64,000 nt of DNA. Origin: Patescibacteria group bacterium (GTDB lineage: Bacteria > Patescibacteriota > Patescibacteriia > UBA1558 > UBA10009). Position numbers and translations under genes: made by a program. Positions 35,396-52,197 of the stretch are shown here, in pieces. The stretch's first letter is position 1. The number at the start of each line of letters is the position of its first letter. The stretch spans positions 91,244 through 155,243 of the forward strand of contig JBAZSE010000002.1 in NCBI GenBank assembly GCA_041662565.1, given 5' to 3'. Below the pieces are notes generated by a model. It had not been told where the DNA came from and did not search any database. It saw only the letters and a program-made list of their open reading frames with translations.

Positions 35396-35971
35396 ATATA
35401 ACACAGGATTGCCGGTTCATAAACTAAATAAAACTTAATAATATGGAAAACCAACCGTATGATCCAGTTGGACACATTAAAATACTAGCTTCTGACTTTA
35501 AAAAAAGTTACTCTTTTTACAAGGATATTTTTGAGGCCTTAAATTACAAACAGGTCTCCAATAAAGAAAATAGTGCTGGTTGGGCTAAAAATGGATATGG
35601 TATATTATTAGGGCAAGCAAAAATCATTGATTTTCCATATAAATATGGGATGCCTGGAATTCATCATATTTGCTTAAAAGCAGAGTCAACTGATAAAGTA
35701 GATGAATTATACAATCTAGCAGTTAAAAAAGAGGTTCATATTTATGAACCACCTCAAAAATATCCTAATTATACCGATAAGTATTATGCTGTATTTTTCG
35801 CTGACCCAGATGGAATGAAAATGGAAATAGCTTATTATTAAGTTTTCTTTAGTTTATTCACCCAAATTGCTCGTTCCCCCTCGTCGCTACGGTGCTAGGC
35901 CTCCGGCCAATTTTAGCACCTTCGCTCGCTCGGGGTCACTTCGCAACTTCGGCAATCCACGCACGTTGTGC
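35396..35971 (+). repeat. split attC site 2: 5' arm (R'' ATATAAC + AGGATTGCCG) and 3' arm (CGGCAATCC + R' GTTGTGC) separated by the VOC ORF
   Basis: L'' aggattgccg at ~35404-35413 is the reverse complement of cggcaatcc at ~35952-35960; 3' arm begins ttcacccaaattgct as in intact attCs. Confidence 0.55.
35443..35841 (+). CDS. VOC/glyoxalase-bleomycin-resistance-fold protein (copy 1)
   Basis: 132 aa; near-identical paralogue at 49242-49640 including 45 nt upstream. Confidence 0.5.
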   Translation: MENQPYDPVGHIKILASDFKKSYSFYKDIFEALNYKQVSNKENSAGWAKNGYGILLGQAKIIDFPYKYGMPGIHHICLKAESTDKVDELYNLAVKKEVHIYEPPQKYPNYTDKYYAVFFADPDGMKMEIAYY

Positions 35972-36004
35972 GAAATAAAATTTTTTTCAGCCTAAAACAT
36001 ACAT

Positions 36005-36487
36005 ATGACAATAATTAAAAAGGCAAAAATCAATGATGCCGCAAATATTGCAAAAATGGCAGTAGCATTATTAAAATACCATGCAAATTTTGATCCATAT
36101 TTTGCCCCCATTAATGACGCAGAAAATATTTATGCTAAGTATTTTAAAAAGTGTATTTACTCTCCAACAAAGCAATTACTGGTGGCAGAATGTGACGGGA
36201 AGTTAGCCGGCTACGCTTTAATTGAAATTACTTCTAGACCCCCTGTTTTCAAAGTAAAAAATATGGGGTTAGTCAATGATATTTTTGTGGTGGCTAAGTT
36301 TCGTAGAAAAGGTGTGGGAAAAGAACTTTTTATCGGTATGCTGGATTGGATTAAAAGTAAAAAACCAGGATATAAATCACTAGACTATATAGAACTATCA
36401 GTAAATATAAAAGACATTATTAGCCAAAAAGCGTGGGCAAAGTATGGATTCAAAGAATATATAAGCAAACAAAGAATGAAGATATAA
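36005..36487 (+). CDS. GNAT-family N-acetyltransferase
   Basis: VAKFRRKGVGKELF acetyl-CoA binding motif A. Confidence 0.65.
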   Translation: MTIIKKAKINDAANIAKMAVALLKYHANFDPYFAPINDAENIYAKYFKKCIYSPTKQLLVAECDGKLAGYALIEITSRPPVFKVKNMGLVNDIFVVAKFRRKGVGKELFIGMLDWIKSKKPGYKSLDYIELSVNIKDIISQKAWAKYGFKEYISKQRMKI

Positions 36488-36512
36488 AACCGGCTGAAAA
36501 AATTTTACATCG

Positions 36513-37035
36513 CACAACACAGGATTGCCGATTCGCAAGGCGAAAAATCTCATTATGTATGAACGAATATACTAAATACATAGGTCAAATAGTTAAGGTT
36601 ATTATGGATAGGCCAATGGGTACTACTCATCCTAGAATCCCAGAAATTTACTATACTCTAAACTATGGTTATATTCCTGATACAATGGCCCCTGATGGTG
36701 AAGAGATAGATGCATATATATTGGGTATTTCTGAACCACTATCTGAATTTACTGGAGAATGTATTGCAGTAATTCATAGATTAAACGATAATGATGATAA
36801 GCTGATAGTTGTGCCAAAAGGGATTACCTTTACTGATGAGCAAATTATAACCTTAACTAACTTTCAGGAAAAATATTTTAAAAGCGAGATTATCAGGAAC
36901 TAAGTTATTTTTTCGCCTTGCTCATCCAAATTGCTCGTTCCCCCTCGTCGCTACGGTGCTAGGCCTCCGGCCAATTTTAGCACCTTCGCTCGCTCGGGGT
37001 CACTTCGCAACTTCGGCAATCCACGCACGTTAGGC
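36513..37035 (+). repeat. split attC site 3: R'' GCACAAC + AGGATTGCCG ... ORF ... CGGCAATCC + R' GTTAGGC
   Basis: R'' complements cassette start TTGTGC; arms complementary across a 345-nt ORF. Confidence 0.55.
36559..36903 (+). CDS. inorganic-pyrophosphatase-like protein (short, N-terminally reduced), encoded inside split attC
   Basis: YTLNYGYIPDTMAPDGEEIDAYILG and DNDDKLIVVP resemble family I PPase motifs. Confidence 0.35.
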   Translation: MNEYTKYIGQIVKVIMDRPMGTTHPRIPEIYYTLNYGYIPDTMAPDGEEIDAYILGISEPLSEFTGECIAVIHRLNDNDDKLIVVPKGITFTDEQIITLTNFQEKYFKSEIIRN

Positions 37036-37106
37036 GTAATTCCATTTCAAGAAAGATAATTTTTGTTATTTTTTGGGAAAAGAAAAAGGAGGGCAGATAC
37101 ACAGAT

Positions 37107-37418
37107 CTACCCTCCATTGATTTGATACTTTCGCTTTCTTGGGATTCTTACTCTAAACAAAGGCTTTTTATATAGTGGCTCTTTATATAGAGAAACAAAA
37201 GCAATAACTCCTACCACTGGACTAGCAACCATCCCTATAATCAATACAATATTGTCAAATAGAGAAGGTTCCATAGACGGCCCATTGTAACCAAGGGTAT
37301 GTAAGTTATTGACTAAAACTATTGCACCGCAAGTTATAACAGGCAAAAGTGCGGCTACAATAGCTCCAACGCAAGATCTTATAACTCTTTTCATCTCTCC
37401 CTCATAAAATTTTGCCAC
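37107..37418 (-). CDS. reverse-oriented cassette ORF: small membrane protein with own promoter
   Basis: minus-strand TTGACA-17-TATTAT at ~37448-37476 and GAGGGAG Shine-Dalgarno. Confidence 0.45.
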   Translation of the reverse strand: MAKFYEGEMKRVIRSCVGAIVAALLPVITCGAIVLVNNLHTLGYNGPSMEPSLFDNIVLIIGMVASPVVGVIAFVSLYKEPLYKKPLFRVRIPRKRKYQINGG

Positions 37419-37623
37419 TAAAGGAGTGACACCTTATAAATGAACCATTTAATAAATTATAATAGCATGGTATTTCTATTCTGTCAATCTATGCCACTTC
37501 GTTTTTTACTAAATTTAGCTAATATTAGCCAAAAATAACAAAAATTATTAAAAAATACATTGTAAAATCAAGGTTTTTCAATTATTAAGAGATTATGGTA
37601 GGATTATTGGGAAATGGAACACC

Positions 37624-37830
37624 GCCTAACACCGCGTATGCGGCTTTAGCTTCCGCCTCTCTAACTAGCATTGATATTTCTTAACAAAACTGCTTAAATT
37701 AGATTAAGCAGTTTTAGTTTTTAATACAGAACGTGCGGCGTAAGCTAAAGCGTACATTGGCGGGTGGTTCCCCGCCTGTCGGCGGGATATTTTACCACCC
37801 GCCAACGTCGCATACGCACGCACGTTAGGC
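37624..37830 (+). repeat. attC site 4 (long type; R'' GCCTAAC ... R' GTTAGGC) with internal hairpin ctgcttaa-attagat-ttaagcag
   Basis: ccgcgtatgcg / cgcatacgcacg inner repeats. Confidence 0.7.
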
Positions 37831-37869
37831 GTAATTAATTTTAAATTTAAACATTATTATACTAAATAC

Positions 37870-38751
37870 ATGGGAATAGAAAAATACACTTTCACTGAAA
37901 AAAATAATTTATTTGAAAAAGGAGAAGTAGATCCTGATTTTGAAATACAAAAAACAACAGTTGAAGATGCCTTAAGTAGAGCTATTTATGTTGGGGAAGG
38001 ATACGCTAGCGAAAGCCTGCTCAAAGAAAGACCAGGTTATTATGCTAGCTACCAGTCGAATCACGGAATCGACCGAGACCCGGAGTCAGGCAAAATTATT
38101 CCAGGATCTTTCATGAGAAAAAGTATTAAATTAGAAGGTTACTGTTGGCTCGTTGTTGATATAGATGAATATTTTGCAGAATTCGAAAAATCAATTACTG
38201 ACCCAAGTAGAATTTTTGAACTTGCTGAAAAAACCCATCCTTCATTATTAAAACTTATTCGAGCAAGAGGGTTCTTAAAACAAGAAGATTCCATAGAACA
38301 GAGAAAAGAAGATCTTATTACAAATTTAATTGGCATGGAAAATAAAAATAATCTAGCAATAACTTTTGCATATGAGGGTACGGATGAGAACGCGGAAAAA
38401 CTATTTAATGATTTATTTTCAAATAGAGATAAGAAAATAGATGAGGAGAGGCAAATAACTGAAAGTTTAGTAAGTAATGATTCAGAAGTTCAAATCGTAT
38501 TTAATCAAAAAGAGGGACGGGCTGATTTTAAGTCAGTATTTATGGATAACGATAGCGGTATTGGTAGATTTCGTTTTTGGCTACCAGAAGGATTATCAAA
38601 AATAGGAATTGAGCATCCAGAAAGATTTAAAAAAATTTTAGATGATATTAAGTTACTAATTGATAAATTAAAAGAAAATAAGCAAGTTTCACAAATCCAT
38701 ATAAGTCTTGGGACTGGAGTTTTATCTCCATTTTGGAAAAGAAATGAATAA
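37870..38751 (+). CDS. cassette hypothetical protein
   Basis: 293 aa ORF. Confidence 0.5.
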   Translation: MGIEKYTFTEKNNLFEKGEVDPDFEIQKTTVEDALSRAIYVGEGYASESLLKERPGYYASYQSNHGIDRDPESGKIIPGSFMRKSIKLEGYCWLVVDIDEYFAEFEKSITDPSRIFELAEKTHPSLLKLIRARGFLKQEDSIEQRKEDLITNLIGMENKNNLAITFAYEGTDENAEKLFNDLFSNRDKKIDEERQITESLVSNDSEVQIVFNQKEGRADFKSVFMDNDSGIGRFRFWLPEGLSKIGIEHPERFKKILDDIKLLIDKLKENKQVSQIHISLGTGVLSPFWKRNE

Positions 38752-38771
38752 TAAAATTGAAAATTAACACC

Positions 38772-38907
38772 GCCTAACACCCCATATGCGGTTCCGCCCG
38801 CCTGCTGTCGGGCTTCACCCAAATTACTCGTTCGTTCGGGGGTCGGCTCCGCCGATATTTTACCCCCTCACTCACTTCGCAACTTCGCATATGGTGGCAC
38901 GTTAGGT
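38772..38907 (+). repeat. attC site 5 (short type; R'' GCCTAAC ... R' GTTAGGT)
   Basis: ccatatgcg / cgcatatgg. Confidence 0.7.
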
Positions 38908-39064
38908 GAAATAAATTTTTCTTTTAGGGGCAAGTTGAACGATAATACTTTTAAAATAACGGATAAAATTTTGCTTTTTCTTTTTTATTTTAGGGGGATA
39001 TAGGTGTTTTTGCCCCCGACAAAGCGGGGTCAAAAACGATTTATAATAATTAAATACAAAATAT

Positions 39065-39814
39065 ATGAGATTATTCCTAGATGAAACTATATGGAAAACA
39101 AAAAGAGGTTTTACTTTTGATAAAGCTGCTAGCTATTTAGCCATAGGAATTCATGGGGGTCAAGATTTTTTTACATTACCCGTAGGAAGCATACCTGTTT
39201 ACGCCCCTTGCGATGGTGAACTAATAACATTCCCTGGGTTTTCTAAATCAGCTGGTTGGTGGGGTGTATACAGATTCCAATGTAATAATGCTACTTACAG
39301 TTTAAAAATCCTACACATGTACAAAGAACTTAAAGCTGGTAAATACAAAGAAGGTGATATTCTAGGATATTGCGGAGGAACAGGGCTAGCCGTAACCGGA
39401 AAATACGGAACATCATATATAGGAGAATCGCATGAGGAACAAACTTCAGACAGAGCCGTCCCTCATCTACACGCAGAACTTCATATTGGAGAATATAAGC
39501 ATGACACAAACAAAAATAAACTACTAGCACAACAACGCTTAATTGATCCGGTCAAAACCTTTGAAAAATGGCTAAGCGAAACATTAACAACTCAAAATAA
39601 TATGACTTTCTATAAAGAAAAAGATAAATCATCGGTATACATCAAAGGCGCGGATAACATTTACTACCCTATTATAACAGGTAAACATTTCTTAACTTTA
39701 TTTGGCGACTGGAAAGACAATAAAATAAACGAAGTTGACTCCCTGGAACCAAAATCTGACATATATTTTGGGTTATTTAAATCACAAGACGATGGAAAAT
39801 ACGACATTGCATAA
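39065..39814 (+). CDS. M23-family (LytM/lysostaphin-like) metallopeptidase domain protein
   Basis: HGGQD (HxxxD), GSIPVYAPCDGELI, PHLHAELH (HxH) motifs. Confidence 0.6.
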   Translation: MRLFLDETIWKTKRGFTFDKAASYLAIGIHGGQDFFTLPVGSIPVYAPCDGELITFPGFSKSAGWWGVYRFQCNNATYSLKILHMYKELKAGKYKEGDILGYCGGTGLAVTGKYGTSYIGESHEEQTSDRAVPHLHAELHIGEYKHDTNKNKLLAQQRLIDPVKTFEKWLSETLTTQNNMTFYKEKDKSSVYIKGADNIYYPIITGKHFLTLFGDWKDNKINEVDSLEPKSDIYFGLFKSQDDGKYDIA

Positions 39815-39829
39815 AAATAAATTAATTCT

Positions 39830-41434
39830 ATGAGAATTTCAAAAATCATTGTAGAAAACTACAGGTCAATTGAAAGAGTAGAGGTTATACCAGAAAATTT
39901 TTCTATTTTCGTTGGACAAAACAACCATGGAAAAACAAATTTTTTTGAAGCGATAGAATGGTTTTATAACGCTAAATCTTCAAAAGAGGATGAGCACTTT
40001 CAACGCGAAACAAGCAATACTATTAGCGTTGAAATATTATTTGAAGATGTTCAAGAATCAGACATAAATAAGTTAAAAACCGAAGGAAATAAAACAAAAA
40101 TACGTACCATGCTAGGCACAAACACTAGCTTCTCCATTATAAAAAAGAGTCCGGACAATAAAAGAAGCTACTTTGTAAACGAAGAGGATAAGGGCAATCC
40201 TTCTGGTTTAGATACCGCCATAAACGAATTTTTACCTAAATTAGAATATGTTGATACAAAATTAAGACTTGACGATGTTTCAAAATATAAAGATAAAAAT
40301 CCAATAGGCACAATGCTATCCGGGGTTCTAACTACAATTATAGAAAATTCTCAAGACTATATAAATTTCAAAGTAACATTTTCAAAACTATTTGACAGCG
40401 AGGAATCAGAAGTTCGCCAGGAATTAAATAAATTAGGCGCTAAAGTTGAGATCTACTTACAAAAACAATTTCCCGATGGCACGAAAGTTAAATTTACGGT
40501 TAATTCCCCTGAATTTACTGATTTATTGAAGAATTTTGAAACTACTGTAGATGACGGCGTTGAAACTAAGGCCGAAGACAAAGGAGATGGAATGCAGAGA
40601 GCAATTATGTTATCGATTATTCAAGCATTCGCTGATTATAGAAAGGAACAAACAGGTGGTGGCACATTTCTATTTTTAATAGATGAAGCCGAACTTCATT
40701 TGCACCCATCAGCACAAAGAGCATTAAAAAAAGCATTACTAGATATATGTTCAACCGACCAAGTTTTTATAAATACTCATTCATCAGTTCTGGTTGTTGA
40801 TAATCATGAACTGCAAAAAATATTCAAAGTTGAAAAAGAAAATAAAATTACTAATATCACAGGGGTTGGCGATGCAGAAAAAATTGATATAATTTTTGAT
40901 TTACTAGGTGGCAGTCCTTCTGATTTATTATTACCAAGAAATTTTATTATAGTTGAGGGCAGAAGTGAATTTGTTTTCATAAATACAGTTATTAAACGTT
41001 TTTATGCTGAAAAGTATAGGGGTATAAAAATTATTTTTGCCGGCGGGGATCTAGATCAACAAGAACCATCTCTTCTTGCGGTGCATAAATTATTCGTTCC
41101 CTTAGCTGGTTCAGATAATCCTATATATAAAGAAGAGGCCATTATGTTAATTGATAAACCTAATTCGGAACAACAAACAAAATATAATTCTTTTAAATCA
41201 GGCTACCCATACCTTTTCACAAATAACCAAGTTTTTGAATTAACGTCCGAAACTCTTGAGGAATATTACCCAAATGGTTATAAAAAAACAAAAAATGAAA
41301 TACAGGTGGATAAAAAAGTGTCCTATGCAGAAGAGGTGGGTAATAAAATTACACAGGCACAATTTGAATCTGAAATGAAAATTATACACGACGCGCTAGA
41401 GGCAGCAAATACAAAAGGCTTCAATGTTCAATAA
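39830..41434 (+). CDS. OLD-family ATP-dependent endonuclease (ABC-type ATPase + Toprim)
   Basis: GQNNHGKTN Walker A, LFLIDEAELHLHP Walker B/D-loop, C-terminal IIVEGRSE Toprim glutamate and GGDLD. Confidence 0.65.
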   Translation: MRISKIIVENYRSIERVEVIPENFSIFVGQNNHGKTNFFEAIEWFYNAKSSKEDEHFQRETSNTISVEILFEDVQESDINKLKTEGNKTKIRTMLGTNTSFSIIKKSPDNKRSYFVNEEDKGNPSGLDTAINEFLPKLEYVDTKLRLDDVSKYKDKNPIGTMLSGVLTTIIENSQDYINFKVTFSKLFDSEESEVRQELNKLGAKVEIYLQKQFPDGTKVKFTVNSPEFTDLLKNFETTVDDGVETKAEDKGDGMQRAIMLSIIQAFADYRKEQTGGGTFLFLIDEAELHLHPSAQRALKKALLDICSTDQVFINTHSSVLVVDNHELQKIFKVEKENKITNITGVGDAEKIDIIFDLLGGSPSDLLLPRNFIIVEGRSEFVFINTVIKRFYAEKYRGIKIIFAGGDLDQQEPSLLAVHKLFVPLAGSDNPIYKEEAIMLIDKPNSEQQTKYNSFKSGYPYLFTNNQVFELTSETLEEYYPNGYKKTKNEIQVDKKVSYAEEVGNKITQAQFESEMKIIHDALEAANTKGFNVQ

Positions 41435-42224
41435 GGATAAACGTCTTGCCATAAAATTTAAAAATTGGCTTTTAAATAAGCTTTTTGATATAATTAGTTT
41501 CAGAAAAATAAAATTTATGCCCTACTTAAAATTTATATCTGACCAAGATTTAATAAAAGCTGTCAATAAAGTTGTCGGAATTATTGAAAAAGCTGAAGAA
41601 GACGCAGACGCTACATTATATCAAAATGTCATTGACCCTTTCTCTGCCCTATTTCACGGCATTACCCATTCAATGTCATGCAAAGAATGGATTATGCAAG
41701 AAAAGGCAAGGCAAACTCAAAAAACAATGCAAAATGCCATTGGTGATTTTCACCAAGAGATATTGGGATCTATCCCCGGTTGGAAAAACCTTGGCGTAGG
41801 CGGTGGTTTAGATGTTATAAACCTAGAAAAAGAGATTATCGCTGAGGTAAAAAACAAATTCAACACAACAAAGGGTAATCACAAAGTTGAGATATATGAC
41901 GCTATTAAAATGACCTTGAAAAACAATCAGCACAAAGACTTTACTGGCTATTTTGTAGAAATTATCCCTCAAGGAAAGCGTATATACGACAAACCATTTA
42001 CCCCACCAGACAACAAAACCAAGAAAAGACGGCCTGTAAATAACAAAATACGGGTAATTGACGGCGTTAGCTTCTACGCCTTGGCTACTGGACGCAAATT
42101 TGCCTTACAGGAGCTGTTTGAAGTTTTACCAAAAGTTATATCTGAAAACCATAAATATAATCTAAATAAGGCTGAAACCGCTCAATATTTTGAATTATTT
42201 AAAAGAGCTTTTTCCACAGAATAA
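41424..42224 (+). CDS. hypothetical protein, possible PD-(D/E)xK nuclease (restriction-endonuclease candidate); start overlaps OLD gene stop
   Basis: GLDVINLEKEIIAEVKNK D...E.K arrangement; 11-nt overlap implies co-translation. Confidence 0.3.
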   Translation: MFNKDKRLAIKFKNWLLNKLFDIISFRKIKFMPYLKFISDQDLIKAVNKVVGIIEKAEEDADATLYQNVIDPFSALFHGITHSMSCKEWIMQEKARQTQKTMQNAIGDFHQEILGSIPGWKNLGVGGGLDVINLEKEIIAEVKNKFNTTKGNHKVEIYDAIKMTLKNNQHKDFTGYFVEIIPQGKRIYDKPFTPPDNKTKKRRPVNNKIRVIDGVSFYALATGRKFALQELFEVLPKVISENHKYNLNKAETAQYFELFKRAFSTE

Positions 42225-42238
42225 CCATTGCCTAGGCA

Positions 42239-43543: not shown

Positions 43544-43690
43544 TTAGATATTTAAAACGGTTTTGGCTCAGGGGCATTCACCCCTAGCCCCTCTGCCCCC
43601 TCGCCAAAAACGGAAAAAGCAAAATTTTATAACTCAATAATTAAACTGATAAGGCAGATAAATAAGAAAAATTTACATCGGCTAACACCC

Positions 43691-43915
43691 CATATGCGGC
43701 TTAGCTTACGCCTACTATAGTAAGATTGCTATTTGAACTTAAAAATGCTTAAATTAGATTAAGCATTTTTGCTTTAGTAAGCTGTTATTACGGCGTAAGC
43801 TGCGCCCAAATTAGCTCCTCCGTGGCGGCGGTGGGCTCCCCCTCGACTTCGCTCGGGGTCGCAATTATACCACCGCCACTCCGTCGCTAACTTCGCATAT
43901 GGTGGCACGTTATAT
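43691..43915 (+). repeat. attC site 6 (hybrid long type; R' GTTATAT)
   Basis: 5' arm long-type with gcttaaattagattaagc hairpin, 3' arm short-type cgcatatggtggcacgtt. Confidence 0.65.
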
Positions 43916-43964
43916 GAAATTCAGAAGCCCCTAATTTAAATAATTAACAACAAATCATAAAATT

Positions 43965-44486: not shown

Positions 44487-44501
44487 ACCCTTACGTGGGC
44501 T

Positions 44502-44676
44502 TCTGAACTTCATATAACACCCCATATGCGGTTCCGCTCGCCACTCGCAGGCTCGTGTCTCACTTCACCCAAATTGCTTGTCCGCTTAGGCGGTAGCGCT
44601 TACGCGCAATTATACCGCCACGCGTCCTGCGCAACTTCGCATATGGTGGACAGTTAGGTGAAATATCGTCCAATTT
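44502..44676 (+). repeat. attC site 7 (R'' ATATAAC ... R' GTTAGGT)
   Basis: R'' complements cassette start TTATAT. Confidence 0.7.
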
Positions 44677-44762
44677 CTGCTTCGTATATTGACAAAAATA
44701 CTCAATTAATATAGGGTAGGTTATTACGCCCTTAGTTCAACCGTTCAACTTTAGGAAAGATC

Positions 44763-45083
44763 ATGAAGGTAAAAGGGATCACAGAGGTCCAAGTTTTCGT
44801 ACGCAAAAACGAACCAGTTTCGGAAGGAGATTTTCCTCCTTCTCATTACCTGGTGGTAAGAAAACATTTCGCTTGTGGCGATTTAGTCATTGGCATTGAT
44901 AACAGATTGAATCTCGATGTTCTTCATGCCAGTACCAAACCGCACTTCCAGCTGAGTTCGTACCGACAAAAGGGCACGATTGGATTGCCGAACGACATTA
45001 TCCAAAGTGCCACAAAAATCGTCCAAGAACAGCGGGTACTGAACAGAAAGTTCAGAACAGTTAAGCTACTTTTACCTGCTTAG
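44763..45083 (+). CDS. cassette hypothetical protein, GC-rich coding sequence
   Basis: 106 aa; followed by 15-bp-stem terminator at 45089-45132. Confidence 0.4.
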   Translation: MKVKGITEVQVFVRKNEPVSEGDFPPSHYLVVRKHFACGDLVIGIDNRLNLDVLHASTKPHFQLSSYRQKGTIGLPNDIIQSATKIVQEQRVLNRKFRTVKLLLPA

Positions 45084-45088
45084 ACCAA

Positions 45089-45132
45089 TGGTGGTGTGGT
45101 GATACAATATCGCCACACCACCTCTTTTTTTT
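45089..45132 (+). terminator. strong intrinsic terminator inside cassette
   Basis: ggtggtgtggtgata caa tatcgccacaccacc + T8. Confidence 0.7.
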
Positions 45133-45157
45133 AAAAGCAGAAATTGTCCGATACATC

Positions 45158-45366
45158 ACCTAACACCGCGTATGCGGCTTTAGCTTCCGCCTCTTATAAT
45201 AAGGATTGATATTTCTAAACAAAACTGCTTAAATTAGATTAAGCGGTTTTAGTTTTAAATACAGAACGTACGGCGTAAGCTAAAGGCCTACATTGGCGGG
45301 TGGTTCCCCGCCTGCCGGCGGGATATTATACCACCCGCCAACGTCGCATACGCACGCACGTTAGGT
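45158..45366 (+). repeat. attC site 8 (long type; R'' ACCTAAC ... R' GTTAGGT)
   Basis: as site 4. Confidence 0.7.
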
Positions 45367-45480
45367 GAAATTTTACTCAACAAATACTATTTTTTAATTA
45401 AGCCCTTTTGGGATTTTTTTGTAAATGAAAAGTCCCGCATTAAATCGTTCTGCTGAACTTTTCAATGTGGGACTAACCTT

Positions 45481-45759
45481 TCAAAGGCAATGACTTTGCA
45501 TAAGTTCGCCCAATGCATGAAAGGCTACCTCGGATTGATCACCGAGTGGTATGTCGGTTGGGAAATCCCCTGGTTCTAATGGACAAACGCCATGTTCTTC
45601 CATTATAGCTTGGTTGAGTGCGATCTTGGCATCAAACAACTTTTGATCGTCGTCTGTTATGTCAACATTTGCCTCAAATTTCCAAAGCATTTCTACGGCA
45701 TTCTGCAATGTTGCCATCTGAATTTTTCTCTTGAATACGTTTGGTTCACCATGAATCAA
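45481..45759 (-). CDS. reverse-oriented cassette ORF, hypothetical protein with own promoter
   Basis: minus-strand TTGACA-17-TATTAT at ~45770-45806 immediately upstream of ATG. Confidence 0.4.
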   Translation of the reverse strand: MIHGEPNVFKRKIQMATLQNAVEMLWKFEANVDITDDDQKLFDAKIALNQAIMEEHGVCPLEPGDFPTDIPLGDQSEVAFHALGELMQSHCL

Positions 45760-45887
45760 ACAATATATAATAGCATATTATATAAAACCTGTCAAGCTTT
45801 TTAATAAAAAATACTTAAGTATAGCTAAAATTAGCCAAAAAATCCCAAAAGAGCTTAAAAATAAGGTAATTTGTTTCGTAAAACATC

Positions 45888-46094
45888 ACCTAACACCGCG
45901 TATGCGGCTTTAGCTTCCGCCTCTAAGTTCAAGGTTGATATTTCTTAACAAAACTGCTTAAATTAGATTAAGCGGTTTTAGTTCTGACTAAGAACGTGCG
46001 GCGTAAGCTAAAGGCCTACATTGGCGGGTGGTTCCCCGCCTGTCGGCGGGATATTATACCACCCGCCAACGTCGCATACGCACGCACGTTATAT
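45888..46094 (+). repeat. attC site 9 (long type; R'' ACCTAAC ... R' GTTATAT)
   Basis: as site 4. Confidence 0.7.
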
Positions 46095-46165
46095 GCCATA
46101 TTGCTCTTTGACAAGGTGTTTTTAAGAAGTGCACGAACAACAAACTAATTCATACGGAGGATGAA

Positions 46166-46429
46166 GTGAAAAACTTCTTCAACAAAATCAGCATACTCTG
46201 GCATAAGCTTAAGTTTGAGGAAAACTGGCTTAAGTTTGAGGAAAAAATTGGCTTTCTTCTAACGATTAAGCTGGTTTATGTATTAATCATCATTGGAATG
46301 ATTTATTTATGTGCTCCAGAACCCTATTCACATTATGCCCTTTGGTGTTGCTGGAGAATCATTCTCGCCGTGCTATTATACGAGCTGATTACACTTCTGC
46401 TTCAGCGTAGATGCACTAATTATAAGTAG
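46166..46429 (+). CDS. small membrane protein flanked by 20-bp inverted repeats
   Basis: 87 aa; IR aaggtgtttttaagaagtgca (46108-46127) / tgcacttcttaaaaacactt (46476-46495). Confidence 0.4.
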   Translation: MKNFFNKISILWHKLKFEENWLKFEEKIGFLLTIKLVYVLIIIGMIYLCAPEPYSHYALWCCWRIILAVLLYELITLLLQRRCTNYK

Positions 46430-46566
46430 CACGACGCAATTAACAGCAGGAAGAACACCACATGTGTTCTTCCTGCACTTCTTAAAAACACTTTGAAAGA
46501 TAATACTGAATTCAATAAATCTAATCAATTAAAAAGATTGTTTAAAATCAACGAGAGCAATACAGC

Positions 46567-46756
46567 ATATAACACCCCATATGCGGTTCCCCCGCCTACG
46601 CTTTCAGCTTCAGCGGGTTCACCCAAATTTTAATACTTTTCTTGCGGTGGCGCTCCCACCTACGCTCCTCGTCAGGCTCGGAGCTACGGCGGGCAAGCCG
46701 CGCAAATTATACCGCAATAAAAGTATTAAAACTTCGCATATGGTGGCACGTTAGCT
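46567..46756 (+). repeat. attC site 10 (R'' ATATAAC ... R' GTTAGCT)
   Basis: ccatatgcg / cgcatatgg. Confidence 0.7.
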
Positions 46757-46793
46757 GAAATTTTGTTTGCTTTTCATATAACTCAACATTAAT

Positions 46794-47240
46794 ATGTCAG
46801 AAAAAGAAAGGTTTAGACCATTCGCCGCCGCCTATCTCATACTAATTAAAGACGGGCAAGTTTTACTTTCTAAAAGACATAATACCGGATACCTAGATGG
46901 TAATTACGGCTTAATGTCCGGTCATTTTGATGGCGGTGAGACAGCTAAGCAATGTATTATTCGTGAAGCGAAAGAAGAGGCTGATACTACCTTAAGTCCG
47001 GAAGATCTTGAGGTAATTCATGTTATGCATAGACTTGAATCTGACAGGGAATATTTTGATATTTATCTTAAGTCTGAAAAATGGATTGGAGATATTACTA
47101 TCATGGAACCAGATAAATGTAGCGAGCTTAAGTGGAATAACATTGACGATCTTCCGGACAATATGGTTCCAGAAGTAAAACTTGCCCTTGAAAATATTAA
47201 TAAGGGCATACACTATGGTGAATTTGGCTGGACGGCTTGA
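46794..47240 (+). CDS. NUDIX hydrolase
   Basis: Nudix box GHFDGGETAKQCIIREAKEEADT. Confidence 0.7.
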   Translation: MSEKERFRPFAAAYLILIKDGQVLLSKRHNTGYLDGNYGLMSGHFDGGETAKQCIIREAKEEADTTLSPEDLEVIHVMHRLESDREYFDIYLKSEKWIGDITIMEPDKCSELKWNNIDDLPDNMVPEVKLALENINKGIHYGEFGWTA

Positions 47241-47269
47241 TGATAATAACAAAAGGCAAACAAAACATC

Positions 47270-47405
47270 AGCTAACACCCCATATGCGGTTCCATGCCCT
47301 TGCTAGGGCACTCCACCCAAATTGCTCGTTCGTTCGGGGGTCGGCTCCGCCGATATTATACCCCCTCACTCACTTCGCAACTTCGCATATGGTGGCACGT
47401 TAGGT
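47270..47405 (+). repeat. attC site 11 (R'' AGCTAAC ... R' GTTAGGT)
   Basis: R'' complements cassette start TTAGCT. Confidence 0.7.
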
Positions 47406-47439
47406 GCCATATCGCTAACATTTCACGACGAGATCAATT

Positions 47440-47826
47440 ATGGAAAATTCAAAACTTTCACTTTCAATATTGCCGCAAAAATTAGCAATTTGCCGGTTGA
47501 ATAAAGACGCTCGGATTCCTTCTTGGATTGACAATGATGATTATTTCTCAATCACTAAAACTAATAATGAGCTTTCGATAGTTTGTTCTGAGATCAAGGT
47601 GCCTGACGATATTAAAGCTGAAAAAAATTGGCGAGCATTAAAAGTCAACGGATTTTTGGATTTTTCACTTACGGGAATCCTCGCTTCGCTAACTACTCCA
47701 TTAGCAGAAGCTAAAATCAGTATTTTTGCCATATCAACATATGATACTGATTATATACTTGTAAAAGACGATAAGCTCGATGAAGCCGTGAAAGTTTTGA
47801 GCACTTTTTGCAACATTCAAAAATAA
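47440..47826 (+). CDS. ACT-domain-like small-molecule-binding protein
   Basis: 128 aa; ACT_7-like pattern (low confidence). Confidence 0.35.
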   Translation: MENSKLSLSILPQKLAICRLNKDARIPSWIDNDDYFSITKTNNELSIVCSEIKVPDDIKAEKNWRALKVNGFLDFSLTGILASLTTPLAEAKISIFAISTYDTDYILVKDDKLDEAVKVLSTFCNIQK

Positions 47827-47847
47827 ATTCTGAAAACGCGATACAGC

Positions 47848-48508
47848 ACCTAACACAGCGTATCTGGTTTCGTGAAAAGAAAAAATAATAAATAATTTCA
47901 GATATTTAATTAGTTCTTTTAAAATTTTATTATAAAAAAGGCCGCCTCAACCTTCTTGGGTATATTGGCGGTAATGATGTCGGCTTGAGGTAGTATTCTA
48001 CAATTTCCGAAGATCCAGAGCGGGGTTCGGGAAAAAGCAGACCTTGCCACCAAATGCATCTACTGATATGTAGAGCACGTTTGTGCCCTTTGCCTTGCAG
48101 CCGGACCTTGCCGACAAAGGTGCCACGCCGACTACGGTAGCACTTCTGCGATAGGGATCTTCCACCCTATCGCCGGGCTCAAAACCGAATTGAGCGCAAG
48201 CCTCCTTAGAAGGATCAACCTTCAAAACCGTGCCATTAAAGGCAGTAACTTCCTGCAACATTAGCACTCCCTATACTTGTGAGATTGTGTCTTGTGTATT
48301 TTTACAATTCATGGAATAGTATCATTATTTTAAAATTATGTCAATGTTAGTATAAAATTTTAAAAGAACATTAATTAAGGTAAATTATTTATTATATTTC
48401 TCTTCACTTCACCCAAATTTTCTGTTTACTTCGGGGGTAGGCTCGCTACCGCTCGCAATTATACCCCCTCCGTTCACAGAAAACTTCAGATACGCACGCA
48501 CGTTAGGC
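47848..48508 (+). repeat. split attC site 12 (~660 bp): R'' ACCTAAC + CAGCGTATCTG ... embedded minus-strand ORF ... CAGATACGCACG + R' GTTAGGC
   Basis: cgtatctg at 5' arm is reverse complement of cagatacg in 3' arm; 3' arm starts ttcacccaaatttt. Confidence 0.5.
47998..48267 (-). CDS. hypothetical protein encoded on GC-rich insert inside attC 12
   Basis: 89 aa minus-strand ORF; GC content well above flanking DNA. Confidence 0.4.
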   Translation of the reverse strand: MLMLQEVTAFNGTVLKVDPSKEACAQFGFEPGDRVEDPYRRSATVVGVAPLSARSGCKAKGTNVLYISVDAFGGKVCFFPNPALDLRKL

Positions 48509-48528
48509 GAAATTTCGCCCCTACTCAT

Positions 48529-49179
48529 ATGATTACAGAACAAGTAAAACAACTGGGTAAAAAGGTATGCGAATACCTTAAAATGAATAACATTCTTGAA
48601 AAATCTGATTGTATTTTAGTTTTAGGCAGTTATGACGAAAGGGTGGCTATTAGAGCATCAGAATTATACTTACAAGGATTAGCACCTCTGCTTGTATTTT
48701 CAGGTGGATTTGGTAAATTTGCCAAAGATAATTGGGGCGAGGCCGAAGCTGATCATTTTGCAAAAATAGCTATTAAAATGGGTGTGCCTAAAAAGAACAT
48801 CTTGATTGAAAATCAATCAACTAATACCGGAGAGAATATATTATTTACACAAAACCTCTTTCACGAAAAAGGTTTAAACCTAAATAGCTTCATTATTGTT
48901 CAAAAGCCATATATGGAAAGAAGAAGCTATGCCACTTTTAAAAAATATTGGCCCGATAAAAAAGTTTTAGTAACCTCGCCCCAATTATCTTTTGAAGAAT
49001 ACCCGACAACTGGTATATCAATGGAAAGAGTAATTAATACTGCAGTTGGCGACCTACAAAGAGTAAAACTTTATTCTGAAAATGGGTATCAGATTTTTCA
49101 AGAAATATCTAAAGATGTTTGGGATGCTTATGAACAGTTAGTGGCTCTTGGATATAATAAACGTTTAATAAAAGAATAA
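48529..49179 (+). CDS. DUF218/YdcF-like (SanA/ElyC family) protein
   Basis: STNTGENI motif (cf. STNTYEN in YdcF). Confidence 0.5.
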   Translation: MITEQVKQLGKKVCEYLKMNNILEKSDCILVLGSYDERVAIRASELYLQGLAPLLVFSGGFGKFAKDNWGEAEADHFAKIAIKMGVPKKNILIENQSTNTGENILFTQNLFHEKGLNLNSFIIVQKPYMERRSYATFKKYWPDKKVLVTSPQLSFEEYPTTGISMERVINTAVGDLQRVKLYSENGYQIFQEISKDVWDAYEQLVALGYNKRLIKE

Positions 49180-49194
49180 TCGGGGCGAAACATC

Positions 49195-49760
49195 ACCTAA
49201 CACAGGATTGCCGGTTCATAAACTAAATAAAACTTAATAATATGGAAAATCAACCATATGATCCAGTTGGTCACATTAAAATATTAGCATCTGACTTTAA
49301 GAAAAATTATTCTTTTTACAAGGATATTTTTGAGGCCTTAGATTATAAACAAGTTTCCAATAAAGAAAATAGCGCTGGTTGGGCGAAAAATGGTTATAGT
49401 ATATTATTAGGGCAGGCTAAAATCATAGATTATCCATTTAAATATGGCATGCCTGGTATTCATCATATCTGCTTAAAGGCAGAGTCAACTGATAAAGTAG
49501 ATGAATTATATAATCTAGCAATTAAAAAAGAGGTTCATATATATGAACCGCCTAAAAAATATCCTAATTATACCAATAAGTATTACGCTGTATTTTTTGC
49601 TGACCCAGACGGAATGAAGATAGAAATAGCTTATTATTAAGTTTTCTTTAGCTTATTCACGCAAATTGCTCATTTCCCCTCGTCGCTACGGTGCTAGGCC
49701 TATCGGCCAATTTTAGCACTTCCGCTCAAGTAAAACTTCGCATATGGTGGCACGTTAGGT
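49195..49760 (+). repeat. split, chimeric attC site 13: 5' arm AGGATTGCCG-type, 3' arm short-type (cgcatatggtgg), enclosing VOC copy 2
   Basis: 5' arm and 45-nt leader identical to 35396-35442; 3' arm L' does not complement 5' L''. Confidence 0.5.
49242..49640 (+). CDS. VOC/glyoxalase-fold protein (copy 2)
   Basis: paralogue of 35443-35841 with only a few substitutions. Confidence 0.5.
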   Translation: MENQPYDPVGHIKILASDFKKNYSFYKDIFEALDYKQVSNKENSAGWAKNGYSILLGQAKIIDYPFKYGMPGIHHICLKAESTDKVDELYNLAIKKEVHIYEPPKKYPNYTNKYYAVFFADPDGMKIEIAYY

Positions 49761-50168
49761 GAAATCAAATTTTTCTCTATGAGAAAAGGACTATCTACAG
49801 ACAGTCCTTTTAAAATAATGGAGTAGCTGGAAACCAGCAATAATAATTGACAATTGGGAGTCCGACTACGCTCGGACTACACGCCTAAGCAAAATAGCTT
49901 TTGGGTCAATCCCTGCTAGATTTGAAATCCCAATCATCGACCATTGAACATAAGTTCAAATATTGCTGTCTAGCATGTTTCCAGCTACCACTTTTTATGC
50001 TAAACGAACGAATATAAAAAGATATTAAACTATATATAATTTATTGTCAATAGTATTAAAATTATAATAAATAAGTTTATTAATATAGAAAAATTTGACA
50101 TCACCTAACACCGCGTATGCAGTTAAATCAAATTTGCCTTATTTTTCAACTTTTGATAGTATAGCAGT

Positions 50169-50393
50169 ATGAAAAACTTAAACTTTACAGTATACATAGA
50201 AAGAGATGAGGATGGCGTATTTATTGGTTCCATCCCTACTATTCCCTCCTGTTATGCTCAAGGTAAGACCCAAGAGGATATGCTTAAAAATCTTAGGGAA
50301 GTTTTGCGTCTTTGTTTAAGGAATAATAAAAGAGATACTTTAGAAAATACTAAATTTGTAGGCATACAAAACCTAGAAGTTGCTTATGCCTAG
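50169..50393 (+). CDS. hicB: HicB-family antitoxin (UPF0150)
   Basis: YIERDEDGVFIGSIPTIPSCYAQGKTQEDMLKNLREVL matches HicB N-domain pattern. Confidence 0.6.
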   Translation: MKNLNFTVYIERDEDGVFIGSIPTIPSCYAQGKTQEDMLKNLREVLRLCLRNNKRDTLENTKFVGIQNLEVAYA

Positions 50394-50603
50394 ATTAATT
50401 CCAATTAAACCCAAGAAATTGATTAAAATCCTCTTGGGTTTTGGTTTTATAGAACGTGATGCCGAAGGGTCTCACGTCTTTTTTAAACACCAGATGGCAG
50501 AACAACAGTAATACCCATGCACGACGAAATAAGCAAGGGATTGTTAAAAAAGATACTCAACGATATTCAACTCTCAATAGAGGAATACGATAGATTAAGG
50601 TAA
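50386..50603 (+). pseudogene. hicA: hicA toxin gene disrupted by frameshift (two reading frames: MPRLIP...KHQMAEQQ* then IPMHDEISKGLLKKILNDIQLSIEEYDRLR*)
   Basis: both halves match HicA (GSH..F.H and IP.H..I..GLL..IL); frames shift near 50505-50515. Confidence 0.5.
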
Positions 50604-50796
50604 TAAGGCAAATTTTCTTTAACGTACATTGGCGTGTGGTTCCCCGCCTGCCGGCGGGATATTTTACCACCCGCCAACGTCGCATACGCCCGCACGTTAG
50701 GTGAAATAGCCAGAAATTTCTTTTTTATTTTTTAGATTTTTTGACAATTTATCGTAAAATAACATGGCTTGTGATATAATTTAAGTCGTCTAATTA

Positions 50797-51252
50797 TTGA
50801 CTGTAAATATTATGAAAAAAATTTATAAAAATATTGGCATTGGGTTGTTGGTAGCAAATATTTTTTTACTCGTAACTGGTAACTTTTTGAAATTTTTAAC
50901 AGCTCTAATTGTTCTTCCAAATTTTTATTCCTACTTATCGCAAATGATCTCAGTTAATGGACAATATAATGTAATCTTACTTTATTTGTTGATGTCATTA
51001 GATGCCTTACTGACATTTTGGGGAATTGTATTATCAATTATCCTAATTAAAAATAATCGTTATAATAAGCAGTTATTATGGTGGATATACTCATGGGTAG
51101 GAATAAAAATTTTATCCTTTATTTTATTTCTGCCATTAAAAATTTACGAGACTACGGATTTGGTGATAGCTGTACTTTTTTTTGTATTCCTAATCTATCA
51201 AGATAATAAATGGTCAAGGATCATAAAGAATAAATTGCCAAAAAATATATAA
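50797..51252 (+). CDS. cassette polytopic membrane protein
   Basis: 151 aa, 4 TM. Confidence 0.45.
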   Translation: MTVNIMKKIYKNIGIGLLVANIFLLVTGNFLKFLTALIVLPNFYSYLSQMISVNGQYNVILLYLLMSLDALLTFWGIVLSIILIKNNRYNKQLLWWIYSWVGIKILSFILFLPLKIYETTDLVIAVLFFVFLIYQDNKWSRIIKNKLPKNI

Positions 51253-51275
51253 AGGAAAAAATTTCTGTCTACATC

Positions 51276-51494
51276 CCCTATCACCGCGTATGCGGCTTTA
51301 GCTTCCGCCTACTTACTATTACATTGATATTTCATACTAAAGATGCTTAAATACAATTAAGTATCTTTTAGTTTATGGATAACGTGCGGCGTAAGCTAAA
51401 GGCCTACATTGTCAGGGAGTTTCGGGGGTGGCGCTCCGCGCATATTATACCCCCTCAACTCCCTGACAACGTCGCATACGCACGCACGTTAGGT
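51276..51494 (+). repeat. attC site 15 (long type, degenerate R'' CCCTATC; R' GTTAGGT)
   Basis: hairpin gcttaaatacaattaagt variant with compensatory changes. Confidence 0.6.
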
Positions 51495-51584
51495 GCCATT
51501 GCCTTAAAAGTGACTACTATTGTAAGATGTAAAGGTGATGGAAACATCTAAACTAAAAACTAATGTGCGAATATAGGCAACAGC

Positions 51585-52197
51585 ACCTAACACAGGATTG
51601 CCGATTCGCAAATTTAAATAAAATTATTTACCAACTAACCTAAGAATATGTCACAAACTATCAACATTAGTCAGCCGGTCGGTAATGAAAATTATTACGC
51701 TTCCAAAAAAAGAAAAATCATTGACTTTCTAATAGGATTATTTAGTAATTTTTTATCAATACCTTTATTTACATTCTTAGTTCTTTTATTAGGCACTGCA
51801 AGTAATATAGACATTTTTGACCAACATTTACATGATTGGGTTGGGCTAGAGGAAAAATCCTTTATATTCATAACAACGATCCTTATTACATTAGCAACTT
51901 TATTAACTGAATATTTAATAATAAAAAAGTTGAATAAAAAAAGAAAGTACATAACTAAAGGAATGATCATCCCTTTAGTATTATTAATCCTTATTATGCT
52001 CTACGCTTTACTTTATACCAAAATTAAGGGATTTAATTACATGTAATTTCTAAGATGTATTCAATAATTTTATTTAAATTCGCTCATCCAAATTGCTCGT
52101 TCCCCCTCGTCGCTACGGTGCTAGGCCTCTGGCCAATTTTAGCACCTTCGCTCGCTCGGGGTCACTTCGCAACTTCGGCAATCCACGCACGTTCGGT
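51585..52197 (+). repeat. split attC site 16: R'' ACCTAAC + AGGATTGCCG ... ORF ... CGGCAATCC + R' GTTCGGT
   Basis: arms complementary across 399-nt ORF. Confidence 0.55.
51648..52046 (+). CDS. membrane protein encoded inside split attC
   Basis: 132 aa, 3 TM. Confidence 0.45.
   Translation: MSQTINISQPVGNENYYASKKRKIIDFLIGLFSNFLSIPLFTFLVLLLGTASNIDIFDQHLHDWVGLEEKSFIFITTILITLATLLTEYLIIKKLNKKRKYITKGMIIPLVLLILIMLYALLYTKIKGFNYM

Follow-up and report, generated by a model that had tools for sequence, protein, structure and literature searches.

Integron gene cassettes are mobilized through attC sites whose complementary arms are expected to form a single folded recombination site, which raises the question of how sites whose arms lie on either side of an intact gene should be understood. 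Such sites were noticed in a window of 64,000 nucleotides from a Candidatus Komeilibacteria (Patescibacteria) genome (GCA_041662565.1, contig JBAZSE010000002.1, positions 91,244 to 155,243). An earlier note on this sequence described six attC sites whose arms are separated by an entire ORF and proposed either that the hairpin forms around a protein-coding loop or that the genes were inserted into pre-existing attCs. The analysis confirmed the observation and supported the central claim of the note, that each site is one attC-like site with its two halves on either side of an intact gene and that this is not a standard configuration. Of the two alternatives, the evidence favors a hairpin that closes around the gene. 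Whole genes sit inside the recombination sites of this ultra-small (CPR) bacterium, a conserved design that standard integron models and detection tools do not allow for and of which no published description was found.

The cassette array and its recombinase

The window holds a chromosomal, integron-like array consisting of a divergent tyrosine recombinase, an attI-like box and 16 attC-like sites (Table 1). Five sites carry matched R''-L'' and L'-R' arms that are 520-660 nt apart with a gene between them. Three of these are type A (L'' AGGATTGCCG, L' CGGCAATCC), while the others are type D (L'' AGCGTATCTG, L' CAGATACGC) and type B (L'' CGCGTATGCA, L' CGCATACGC). The sixth is a hybrid with a type A 5' arm and a type C 3' arm (L' CGCATATGG) that cannot form the L box; the note listed only its 5' arm.

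The arm pairs are not due to chance. A strict detector that required YAAC, 2-4 nt, a 9-nt arm, the exact reverse complement of that arm, 5-7 nt and GTTR found 15 pairs on the array strand and none elsewhere in the window or on the other strand. In related loci (given here as L numbers) pairs were found only on the expected strand next to the recombinase gene. The embedded ORFs are real genes with Pfam hits to Glyoxalase, Pyrophosphatase and HicB-like families and dN/dS values of 0.05-0.23, indicating purifying selection. Some details of the note require correction or addition. A gene caller extends the pyrophosphatase-like ORF to a GTG at 36433, although the ATG at 36559 fits the frame seen in all other sites. 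Additionally, hicA is frameshifted, and each gene is hugged by an extra stem that the note did not mention.

The recombinase is Xer-like and lacks the IntI-specific domain. It has Pfam Phage_integrase and SAM-like domains and scores 215.5 bits against the NCBIfam XerA_Arch/integron integrase model (cut-off 220) and 193.5 bits against TIGR02249 (cut-off 265). Only 25 amino acids lie where VchIntIA (2a3v) has 66, and the protein aligns end to end with XerA (4a8e). The missing domain counts against integron-type activity, since it has been reported to be necessary for integron integrase activity (Messier and Roy 2001).

Table 1. Features of the cassette array, in window coordinates.
Feature	Position	Strand	Details
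Tyrosine recombinase	32907-33782	-	291 aa, divergent from the array
attI-side R box	33859-33866	+	GTTGTACG, start of the first cassette; exact complement of the first attC's R'' CGTACAAC at 34692-34699
attC 1	34693-34831	+	Type C, 139 nt, minimal hairpin 1
Cassette body (example)	34829-35402	+	DUF3267 ORF 34869-35375, bracketed by its own inverted repeat next to the R boxes
attC 2	35396-35971	+	Type A, with cargo; R'' 35396-35402, L'' 35405-35414, hairpin-1 arms 35419-35437 and 35839-35857, junction TCACCCAAATT 35858-35868, hairpin 2, L' 35950-35958, R' GTTGTGC 35965-35971
Cargo of attC 2	35443-35841	+	VOC/glyoxalase-family protein, 132 aa, in the hairpin-1 loop; Pfam Glyoxalase 5e-10; dN/dS 0.057 against the paralog at 49242-49640
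attC 3	36512-37035	+	Type A, with cargo; L'' 36521-36530, hairpin-1 arms 36535-36547 and 36909-36921, L' 37014-37022, R' 37029-37035
Cargo of attC 3	36559-36903	+	Short pyrophosphatase-like protein, 114 aa; Pfam Pyrophosphatase 1.9e-8
attC 4	37624-37826	+	Type B, 203 nt; hairpin 1 carries an ~80-nt AT-rich insert with a bidirectional terminator-like hairpin; same class at 43680-43911, 45158-45362, 45888-46090 and 51276-51490
attC 5	38772-38903	+	Type C, 132 nt; other short sites at 44512-44655, 46567-46752 and 47270-47401
attC 12	47848-48508	+	Type D, with cargo; L'' 47857-47866, long hairpin-1 arms 47872-47930 and 48352-48407, L' 48487-48495, R' 48502-48508
Cargo of attC 12	47998-48267	-	Reverse orientation, 89 aa, no family hit; own promoter-like site at 48344-48316
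attC 13	49195-49760	+	Hybrid; type A 5' arm and hairpin 1 around the VOC paralog 49242-49640, type C 3' end with L' 49739-49747
attC 14	50103-50702	+	Type B, with cargo; L'' 50112-50121, hairpin-1 arms 50122-50143 and 50602-50623, L' 50681-50689; cargo hicB 50169-50393 plus frameshifted hicA at about 50390-50603
attC 16	51585-52197	+	Type A, with cargo, preceded by a cassette body of only 104 nt; L'' 51594-51603, hairpin-1 arms 51608-51628 and 52063-52083, L' 52176-52184, R' 52191-52197
Cargo of attC 16	51648-52046	+	Predicted membrane protein, 132 aa; dN/dS 0.23; homologous cargo in the same frame in L033 and L037
Fic/DOC body	52194-53003		Shared with related loci
Distal end of the array	53066-53075	+	R'' remnant CACCGCCTAA followed by unrelated sequence; break at AA|C

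Each gene-bearing site is a single site

Several lines of evidence show that the two halves belong to one site. The L'' and L' types match across each gene (A/A, B/B, D/D) apart from the hybrid. The hicBA cargo has B/B arms in the window but C/C arms in L019, so that both sides have changed together. The R'' is the 8/8 complement of the GTTNNNNN that starts its own cassette in 13-14 of 16 cassettes, including four with cargo, which is the canonical cassette signature. Finally, no related genome examined shows the gene between two complete, independent attCs. The possibility that AGGATTGCCG is only a leader or promoter is not supported, since the motif has its complement downstream (the hybrid aside) and no promoter signal sits in the frame.

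Predicted structure of the sites

The bottom strand of the sites is predicted to fold into a three-way junction made of an R/L stem (the R box, an asymmetric spacer and the L box), a GC-rich hairpin 2 and a variable hairpin 1. Hairpin 1 acts as a cargo slot. In different sites it holds a tetraloop, an ~80-nt terminator-like insert, or a 13-27-bp stem that closes directly around a whole gene of 60-200 codons or a hicBA pair, making the gene the loop of the variable terminal structure. Minimum-energy bottom-strand folds of full-length sites give the L box, hairpin 2 and a gene-closing stem, with z = -6.2 and -5.4, and short and mid-size sites give the same junction. When the circular junction is restored, a continuous rod forms and the bottom strand is 5-9 kcal/mol more stable than the top. 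For type A frames the bottom strand is more stable in 19 of 23.

The closing stem covaries strongly. In 21 distinct stems, 92.6% of cells are paired and 16 of 18 pairs show changes on both sides, and the covariation score is 0.536 against 0.173 in shuffles (0 of 500 reach it) and at most 0.147 in slid controls. Cognate arms pair over 18.8 bp on average while non-cognate arms pair over 8.2 bp. However, in an equilibrium model the L box pairs with P of about 0.98 with the closing stem and about 0.95 when its 5' arm is shuffled, so the conservation of the stem is not explained thermodynamically, and a role as a kinetic clamp is only inferred. Non-Watson-Crick cells in the stems are A.C on the top strand about 21 times and G.T about 4 times, which means wobble pairs on the bottom strand and points to folding of DNA rather than sense mRNA.

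All 16 ordinary cassette bodies are also bracketed by their own stems, which extend 5-20 bp beyond the R box (cognate mean 11.4, non-cognate 3.0), and about 35 further bodies in related loci show the same.

Recurrence in related genomes

Cargo-bearing sites occur in L001, L005, L006 and L009. Of 27 type A 3' arms (three in the window, three in L001 and the rest in 23 metagenome contigs), 22 have a type A 5' arm 307-841 nt upstream, almost always with a sense ORF between, while the remaining five are hybrids or rearranged. The enclosed ORFs fall into 18 unrelated families, and no empty type A site was seen. Recent turnover of cassettes is also evident, as L033 and L037 are 99.97% identical up to an R' and then differ.

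Proposed mechanism

The explanation held with reasonable, though not full, confidence is that these are single attC-like recombination sites in which genes ride. It is proposed that when about 0.4-0.9 kb of the strand is single-stranded (lagging-strand template or DNA uptake), the closing stem and the L and R boxes bring the two halves of the site together, and that the neighboring Xer-like recombinase then exchanges strands at the G|TT of R', as in integrons, so that the embedded gene travels with the site. The evidence is entirely comparative and no recombination was observed; folding in vivo, catalysis by this recombinase and the cleavage point are inferred. Published work reports up to a 4-log drop in recombination for long variable structures under replicative conditions, and the sites lack canonical extrahelical bases in the L box and have a spacer of 2-3 nt on one arm and 6 nt on the other. 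In addition, bodies and attC interiors assort independently, as dif modules do: the same cassette body is followed by different site interiors in different genomes, which crossover at R' alone does not predict. In the excised circle the cassette would be a dumbbell composed of body loop, body stem, R box, L box, junction and cargo loop.

Alternative explanations

A possible extension of this model, rather than one that excludes it, is a two-compartment system resembling dif modules. The array would be a chain of alternating bodies flanked by R boxes and interiors flanked by L boxes, separated by inversely oriented half-sites, with crossovers at R'' as well as at R', for example because both strands are recombined by an enzyme that lacks the strand-selecting IntI domain. 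Bodies and interiors would then be equivalent gene compartments that assort independently. The Fic/DOC body is followed by five different interiors and preceded by six in L001, L028, L033, L038 and L041, with breaks at R'' and R', and a second body shared by L020, L025 and L031 behaves the same way. The array also ends at a cut R'', although this is a single case, and alternating C and D dif modules flanked by inversely oriented sites are a documented precedent. This reading remains tentative because the spacer of the R''-L'' half-site is too short for a double-stranded core site, the L arms do not resemble the R arms and the bottom strand is clearly favored energetically. Independent assortment could instead arise from homologous recombination or slippage between the conserved arms, or from fusion of minimal cassettes such as 51488-52197.

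It is unlikely that the sites are immobile fossils into which genes were inserted by an unrelated process and which are kept only because the genes are useful. The hybrid and rearranged sites, the frameshifted hicA and the reported effect of long variable structures are compatible with this view. However, arms stay matched in most type A cases and across arm types, the closing stem shows many compensatory changes, and VOC frames are identical over 46 nt while synonymous sites differ (dS 0.5). Moreover, cargo always sits in the same slot, the stem arms occur only inside frames, and no transposase, reverse transcriptase or target duplication is present. An origin by insertion of genes into an attC arm is not excluded, but it would then be a systematic and ancient process and not an accident, as every matched type A site seen is loaded, with unrelated ORF families.

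An RNA-level element, in which the flanks pair in the mRNA as a leader or trailer for processing, stability or translation, is more doubtful still. The flanks hug the start and stop codons, the stop TAA is often the first three bases of the 3' arm, and long 5'-3' stems may serve as RNase III sites. Against this, mismatches on the sense strand are A.C and not G.U, the antisense-oriented cargo of attC 12 has the same bracket, the outer arms are the R/L boxes shared with all short sites, R'' covaries with the cassette start, and neither a promoter signal in the frame nor an Rfam hit was found. Although repeated attCs can mislead assemblers, chance complementarity or an assembly artefact can be all but dismissed, since the same architecture appears in more than 30 independent contigs from different samples and studies, the detector gave no off-array hits and the window lies on an 809-kb contig.

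Comparison with known systems

Integron attC sites with long, branched variable terminal structures, such as the Vibrio cholerae repeats, share with the sites described here the RYYYAAC and GTTRRRY boxes at the two ends, L''/L' pairing whose sequence is free to vary, a variable terminal structure that can be branched, a more stable bottom strand, an R'' complementary to the start of its own cassette, and an array next to a divergent tyrosine recombinase and an attI-like box. Published attC lengths are 57-141 bp whereas sites here reach 660 nt in the window and 845 nt elsewhere, with a whole gene in one arm of the junction. The L box, the asymmetric spacer, the stem-bracketed cassette bodies and the recombinase differ as well.

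The dif modules (pdif sites, XerC/XerD) of Acinetobacter plasmids also involve the Xer-type recombinase family and two classes of gene modules that alternate between inversely oriented sites. These modules, often toxin-antitoxin pairs, assort independently, and fused modules occur. However, pdif sites are 28-bp double-stranded sites with a 6-bp spacer that are bound by two different recombinases, while here the half-sites flanking a module are complementary arms of a hairpin with unequal spacers and one dedicated recombinase gene sits next to a unidirectional chromosomal array.

Elements that insert into attC sites (the IS1111-attC group and group IIC-attC introns) likewise place foreign DNA inside an attC. 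The cargo described here has no transposase or reverse transcriptase, occupies a constant structural slot and is closed by a covarying stem, and the two attC halves stay matched. Among archaeal integrons and XerA-like recombinases, the NCBIfam XerA_Arch/integron integrase model is the one against which the recombinase scores best, and relatives at 44% identity occur in DPANN archaeal MAGs, but archaeal IntIs were reported to carry the IntI-specific additional domain that this protein lacks. Synthetic attC sites embedded in coding sequence (Nivina et al. 2020) show, as do the present sites, that attC function depends on structure and tolerates almost any sequence, but that work puts an attC inside a gene whereas here a gene is inside an attC.

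Organization of the cassette array

The region is the cassette array of a chromosomal, integron-like element whose host is a Candidatus Komeilibacteria (Patescibacteria/CPR); the window is part of an 809-kb contig, and the closest recombinase genes lie in Komeilibacteria and Patescibacteria MAGs. A 291-aa tyrosine recombinase is encoded divergently from the array, with an attI-type box, GTTGTACG, 77 nt upstream of its gene. The 16 attC-like sites that follow all lie on the plus strand, and the attI-type box is complementary to the R'' of the first of them. Each site reads R'' (RYYYAAC), AC, a 10-nt L'', an interior, a 9-nt L', a 6-nt spacer and then R' (GTTRRRY). The sites can be grouped by the sequence of their L arms (types A to D).

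An earlier note had listed six attC sites whose complementary arms are separated by an entire ORF, and every motif and ORF that it listed is present. Five of these sites have matched arms 520-660 nt apart with a gene between them, while the sixth (at 49195) combines a type A 5' arm with a type C 3' end and cannot form its L box. A permissive search for arm pairs, allowing one mismatch and AT-rich arms, was swamped by chance hits and was replaced by strict criteria. The strict detector found arm pairs only inside the array and only on the plus strand, and in related loci only on the strand expected from the recombinase gene. Chance is therefore excluded. The enclosed ORFs are real genes, with Pfam hits to Glyoxalase, Pyrophosphatase and HicB-like, and dN/dS is 0.057 for the two VOC copies, 0.05-0.06 for hicB and 0.23 for the membrane protein. 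The hicA toxin gene within the hicBA cargo, however, has a 1-nt deletion relative to the related loci L019 and L028 and is frameshifted, whereas hicB is intact.

Four lines of evidence show that each of these is a single site rather than two. First, L'' and L' types match across each interior (A/A, B/B, C/C, D/D) in 15 of the 16 window sites. Second, the hicBA cargo with its closing stem is 90% identical in L019, where both arms are type C whereas both are type B here, so the two sides changed together across 500 nt. Third, the R'' in front of each gene is the exact 8/8 complement of the GTTNNNNN that starts that same cassette. This classical cassette signature, which implies crossover between the G and the TT of the box, holds in 13-14 of 16 cassettes, and ten informative cases favour the cassette's own start over the next R'; the pattern is symmetric, however, and would also fit a crossover at R''. 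Fourth, in no related genome is one of these genes flanked by two complete attCs. The interpretation in the earlier note, that the two halves of one site lie on either side of a gene, is thus supported.

Features of the array and of related loci. Coordinates are those of the window unless a related locus (L) is named.
Feature	Coordinates	Strand	Remarks
HigB-like toxin and RHH antitoxin pair	32337-32839	-	Directly behind the recombinase gene
Tyrosine recombinase, 291 aa	32907-33782	-	Xer-like
attI-type box	33859-33866		GTTGTACG
16 attC-like sites	34693-52197	+
Cassette bodies (examples)	34829-35402; 35965-36518		Bracketed by their own inverted repeats
Conserved motif on one side of hairpin 2 (examples)	35920-35932; 37787-37797; 38856-38866		(C/G)(A/G)ATTWTA(C/G)C, unpaired
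AT-rich inserts in hairpin 1 of five mid-size attCs (approximate)	37646-37745; 43702-43820; 45180-45280; 45910-46010; 51298-51400		About 80 nt, with palindromic terminator-like hairpin (AAAACTGCTTAAATTAGATTAAGCAGTTTT)
Defence cassette, 4.8 kb	38904-43679		Four genes: weak M23-like protein; AAA_15 ATPase; Eco47II-type restriction endonuclease; C5 cytosine methylase with a MerR-type HTH
Cassette body without an ORF, 350 nt	49757-50102		Long inverted repeat (GTAGCTGGAAAC ... GTTTCCAGCTAC)
Strong promoter-like site in that body	50050-50022	-
hicA	50390-50603		Frameshifted, inside the hicBA cargo
Fic/DOC cassette body	52194-53003		Also in L001, L028, L033, L038 and L041
R'' remnant at the array end	53066-53075		CACCGCCTAA followed by AAAA
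Frame-less, partly decayed cassette-type genes	53127-54146		Downstream of the array end
Pseudogene among these	53559-53930		Family that is cargo in L021
Minimal 34-nt site	L041, about 3985-4018 (array-strand coordinates)		CACCTAACACCGCGTATGCATACGCACGCACGTT; R and L boxes but no variable structure
Contigs differing in cargo	L025, 4394-4933; L032, 720-1106		97.7% identical from hairpin 2 through the next cassette

Predicted structure of the sites

Bottom-strand folds of short (132-186 nt), mid-size (203-232 nt) and long sites all give a three-way junction consisting of the R/L stem, a GC-rich hairpin 2 and a variable hairpin 1. Hairpin 1 takes three forms. In short sites it is a 5-7-bp stem with a tetraloop; in five mid-size sites it is a 15-bp stem with a conserved AT-rich insert holding a bidirectional terminator-like hairpin; and in the long sites it is a 13-27-bp stem that closes directly around the gene. 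The gene is thus the loop of the site's variable terminal structure, closed by a stem that the earlier note had not seen, and often the stop codon TAA is the first three bases of the 3' arm of this stem. The AT-rich insert occurs in both type B and type C frames, recurs in the related loci L020, L033, L036 and L041, and has no Rfam match. The conserved motif of hairpin 2 is present in all arm types and in distant relatives, and the junction motif TCACCCAAAT is likewise conserved; these are possible protein contact points.

Covariation supports the closing stem. In 21 distinct type A closing stems, 92.6% of cells pair and 16 of 18 pairs show changes on both sides, and the covariation score is 0.536 against 0.173 in shuffles (0 of 500 reach it) and at most 0.147 for slid partners. 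Cognate arms pair over 18.8 bp on average, non-cognate arms over 8.2 bp. Non-Watson-Crick cells in these stems and in the body stems described below are A.C on the top strand about 21 times and G.T about 4 times. These are wobble pairs on the bottom strand, which argues for folding of bottom-strand DNA rather than of the sense mRNA. Additionally, the bottom strand is more stable in 19 of 23 type A frames, and with the circular junction restored it is more stable by 5-9 kcal/mol, whereas the published figure for attCs is about 2-3 kcal/mol. The role of the closing stem is less clear, since an equilibrium model predicts L-box pairing at P of about 0.98 in the full-length strand and still about 0.95 when the 5' arm of the stem is shuffled. 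A clamp function is therefore only a kinetic inference.

Occurrence in related genomes

Cargo-bearing sites also occur in the arrays of four related loci (L001, L005, L006 and L009) whose recombinases are 58-72% identical, with other arm sequences. A metagenome scan for the type A 3' arm returned 23 contigs, and counting the window and L001 as well gives 27 type A 3' arms. In 22 of them a type A 5' arm lies 307-841 nt upstream, almost always with a sense ORF of 59-198 codons between. These ORFs fall into 18 unrelated families, including HNH and RibD_C/DHFR-like proteins. No empty type A site was found among them, and five arms are hybrids or rearranged. Recombinases 44% identical to the one described here occur in DPANN archaeal MAGs (Woesearchaeota; L011 and L012).

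No recombination was observed directly, but there are indirect signs of activity. The contigs L033 and L037 are 99.97% identical up to an R' and then carry different cassettes, and the Fic/DOC cassette body recurs behind different sites in five loci.

Cassette bodies and exchangeable units

All 16 ordinary cassette bodies of the window are also bracketed by inverted repeats. After the 9-bp R box and a conserved 2-nt mismatch comes a body-specific stem of 5-20 bp, with a cognate mean of 11.4 bp against 3.0 for non-cognate pairs in the window, and about 35 further bodies in L001 and L019-L041 show the same. With the junction restored, the body stem, R box and L box form one rod, so that a circular cassette would be a dumbbell with two loops, either of which can hold a gene. 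One body contains no ORF and may encode a non-coding RNA, although it has no Rfam hit.

Bodies and site interiors assort independently. Breakpoint statistics over all HSPs were confounded by attC-attC similarity, and the analysis was repeated by HSP class. The same Fic/DOC body is followed by five different interiors and preceded by six, with breaks at R'' and R', and a second body shows the same. Hairpin 1 with its cargo is a third exchangeable unit, since L025 and L032 share hairpin 2 and the next cassette but hold different cargo and different hairpin-1 bases; the short helix at the junction also covaries (GGT/ACC against GAT/ATC). Lastly, the array ends at an R'' remnant cut between AA and C. 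These observations resemble the alternating C and D dif modules of Acinetobacter plasmids and suggest that exchange may also occur at R'', but homologous recombination or slippage between the conserved arms could give the same picture.

A tentative reading, not excluded by the evidence, is that CPR bacteria carry a distinct cassette system, either a sister or an ancestor of integrons, that is run by a Xer-like recombinase without the IntI domain. The mobile unit would be a dumbbell of single-stranded DNA with two gene-carrying loops, the cassette body and the interior of the recombination site, each closed by its own stem. Strand exchange could occur at either R box, allowing the two compartments to shuffle independently, which would combine integron-type and dif-module-type logic. 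Such a system would give a concrete setting, genes in hairpin loops, in which to ask how cassettes are made.

An independent mobile element bounded by terminal inverted repeats (a transposon or MITE) is rejected for now, because the stem arms were found only inside type A frames in 435 kb of related DNA, a sample that is biased towards integron regions. A leader or promoter role for the flanks gained no support, since a promoter and terminator scan was barely above the shuffle expectation and showed no promoter in the type A frame, and a search of Rfam at E up to 0.1 over 32000-54000 gave nothing.

Implications

Sites of this kind bear on how recombination sites are defined, because genes of up to about 200 codons are here a regular, conserved part of a site that is otherwise treated as a short, gene-free hairpin following a gene. 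Structure-specific recombination sites may therefore tolerate kilobase-scale loops if these are closed by a helper stem. In detection, the embedded genes would be called ordinary cassette genes or "ORF-less cassettes", and cassette content in CPR genomes, and possibly elsewhere, may be mis-described. That one conserved frame encloses 18 unrelated genes, and that bodies are also stem-bracketed, puts a concrete constraint on the long-open question of how genes become cassettes. A Xer-like enzyme without the IntI domain next to a cassette array bears on how integron integrases arose from Xer recombinases. The design also suggests recombination sites that carry their own payload.

Comparison with known systems

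Literature searches for integrons in Patescibacteria/CPR, or for ORFs within attC, found no description. Elements that target attC sites (IS or group IIC introns) encode a transposase or reverse transcriptase, whereas the cargo domains found here are VOC, pyrophosphatase-like, HicB, HNH and RibD_C, or give no hit. In dif module systems, two module classes alternate between inversely oriented sites and assort independently, as bodies and interiors do here. The 28-bp pdif sites, however, consist of an XerC arm, a 6-bp spacer and an XerD arm. Here L' and R' with the 6 nt between them are not dyad-symmetric, the L and R arms are not inverted copies, and R'' and L'' are separated by only 2-3 nt, so that a double-stranded dif-like core site is rejected.

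The array shares with integrons a recombinase gene divergent from a unidirectional array, an attI-type box at the proximal end, R'' and R' boxes with L''/L' inverted repeats predicted to fold as a hairpin, complementarity of R'' to the start of its own cassette, and a more stable bottom strand. It differs in the recombinase, which aligns end to end with XerA, has 25 residues where VchIntIA has the 66 that include the IntI-specific domain, and scores 193.5 against the integron-integrase model TIGR02249, below its cut-off of 265. Archaeal integron integrases, in contrast, were reported to keep the IntI domain. The sites differ as well. Their L boxes pair without bulges and so lack extrahelical bases, and the spacer is AC(A) on one arm and ACGCAC or TGGCAC on the other rather than an unpaired 5-6 nt on each arm. 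Reviews and primary papers give attC lengths of 57-141 bp and describe variable terminal structures from 3 nt to branched forms, with recombination falling as these lengthen unless the DNA is delivered single-stranded. The sites described here measure 132-232 nt without genes and 520-661 nt with genes in the window, and up to 845 nt elsewhere.
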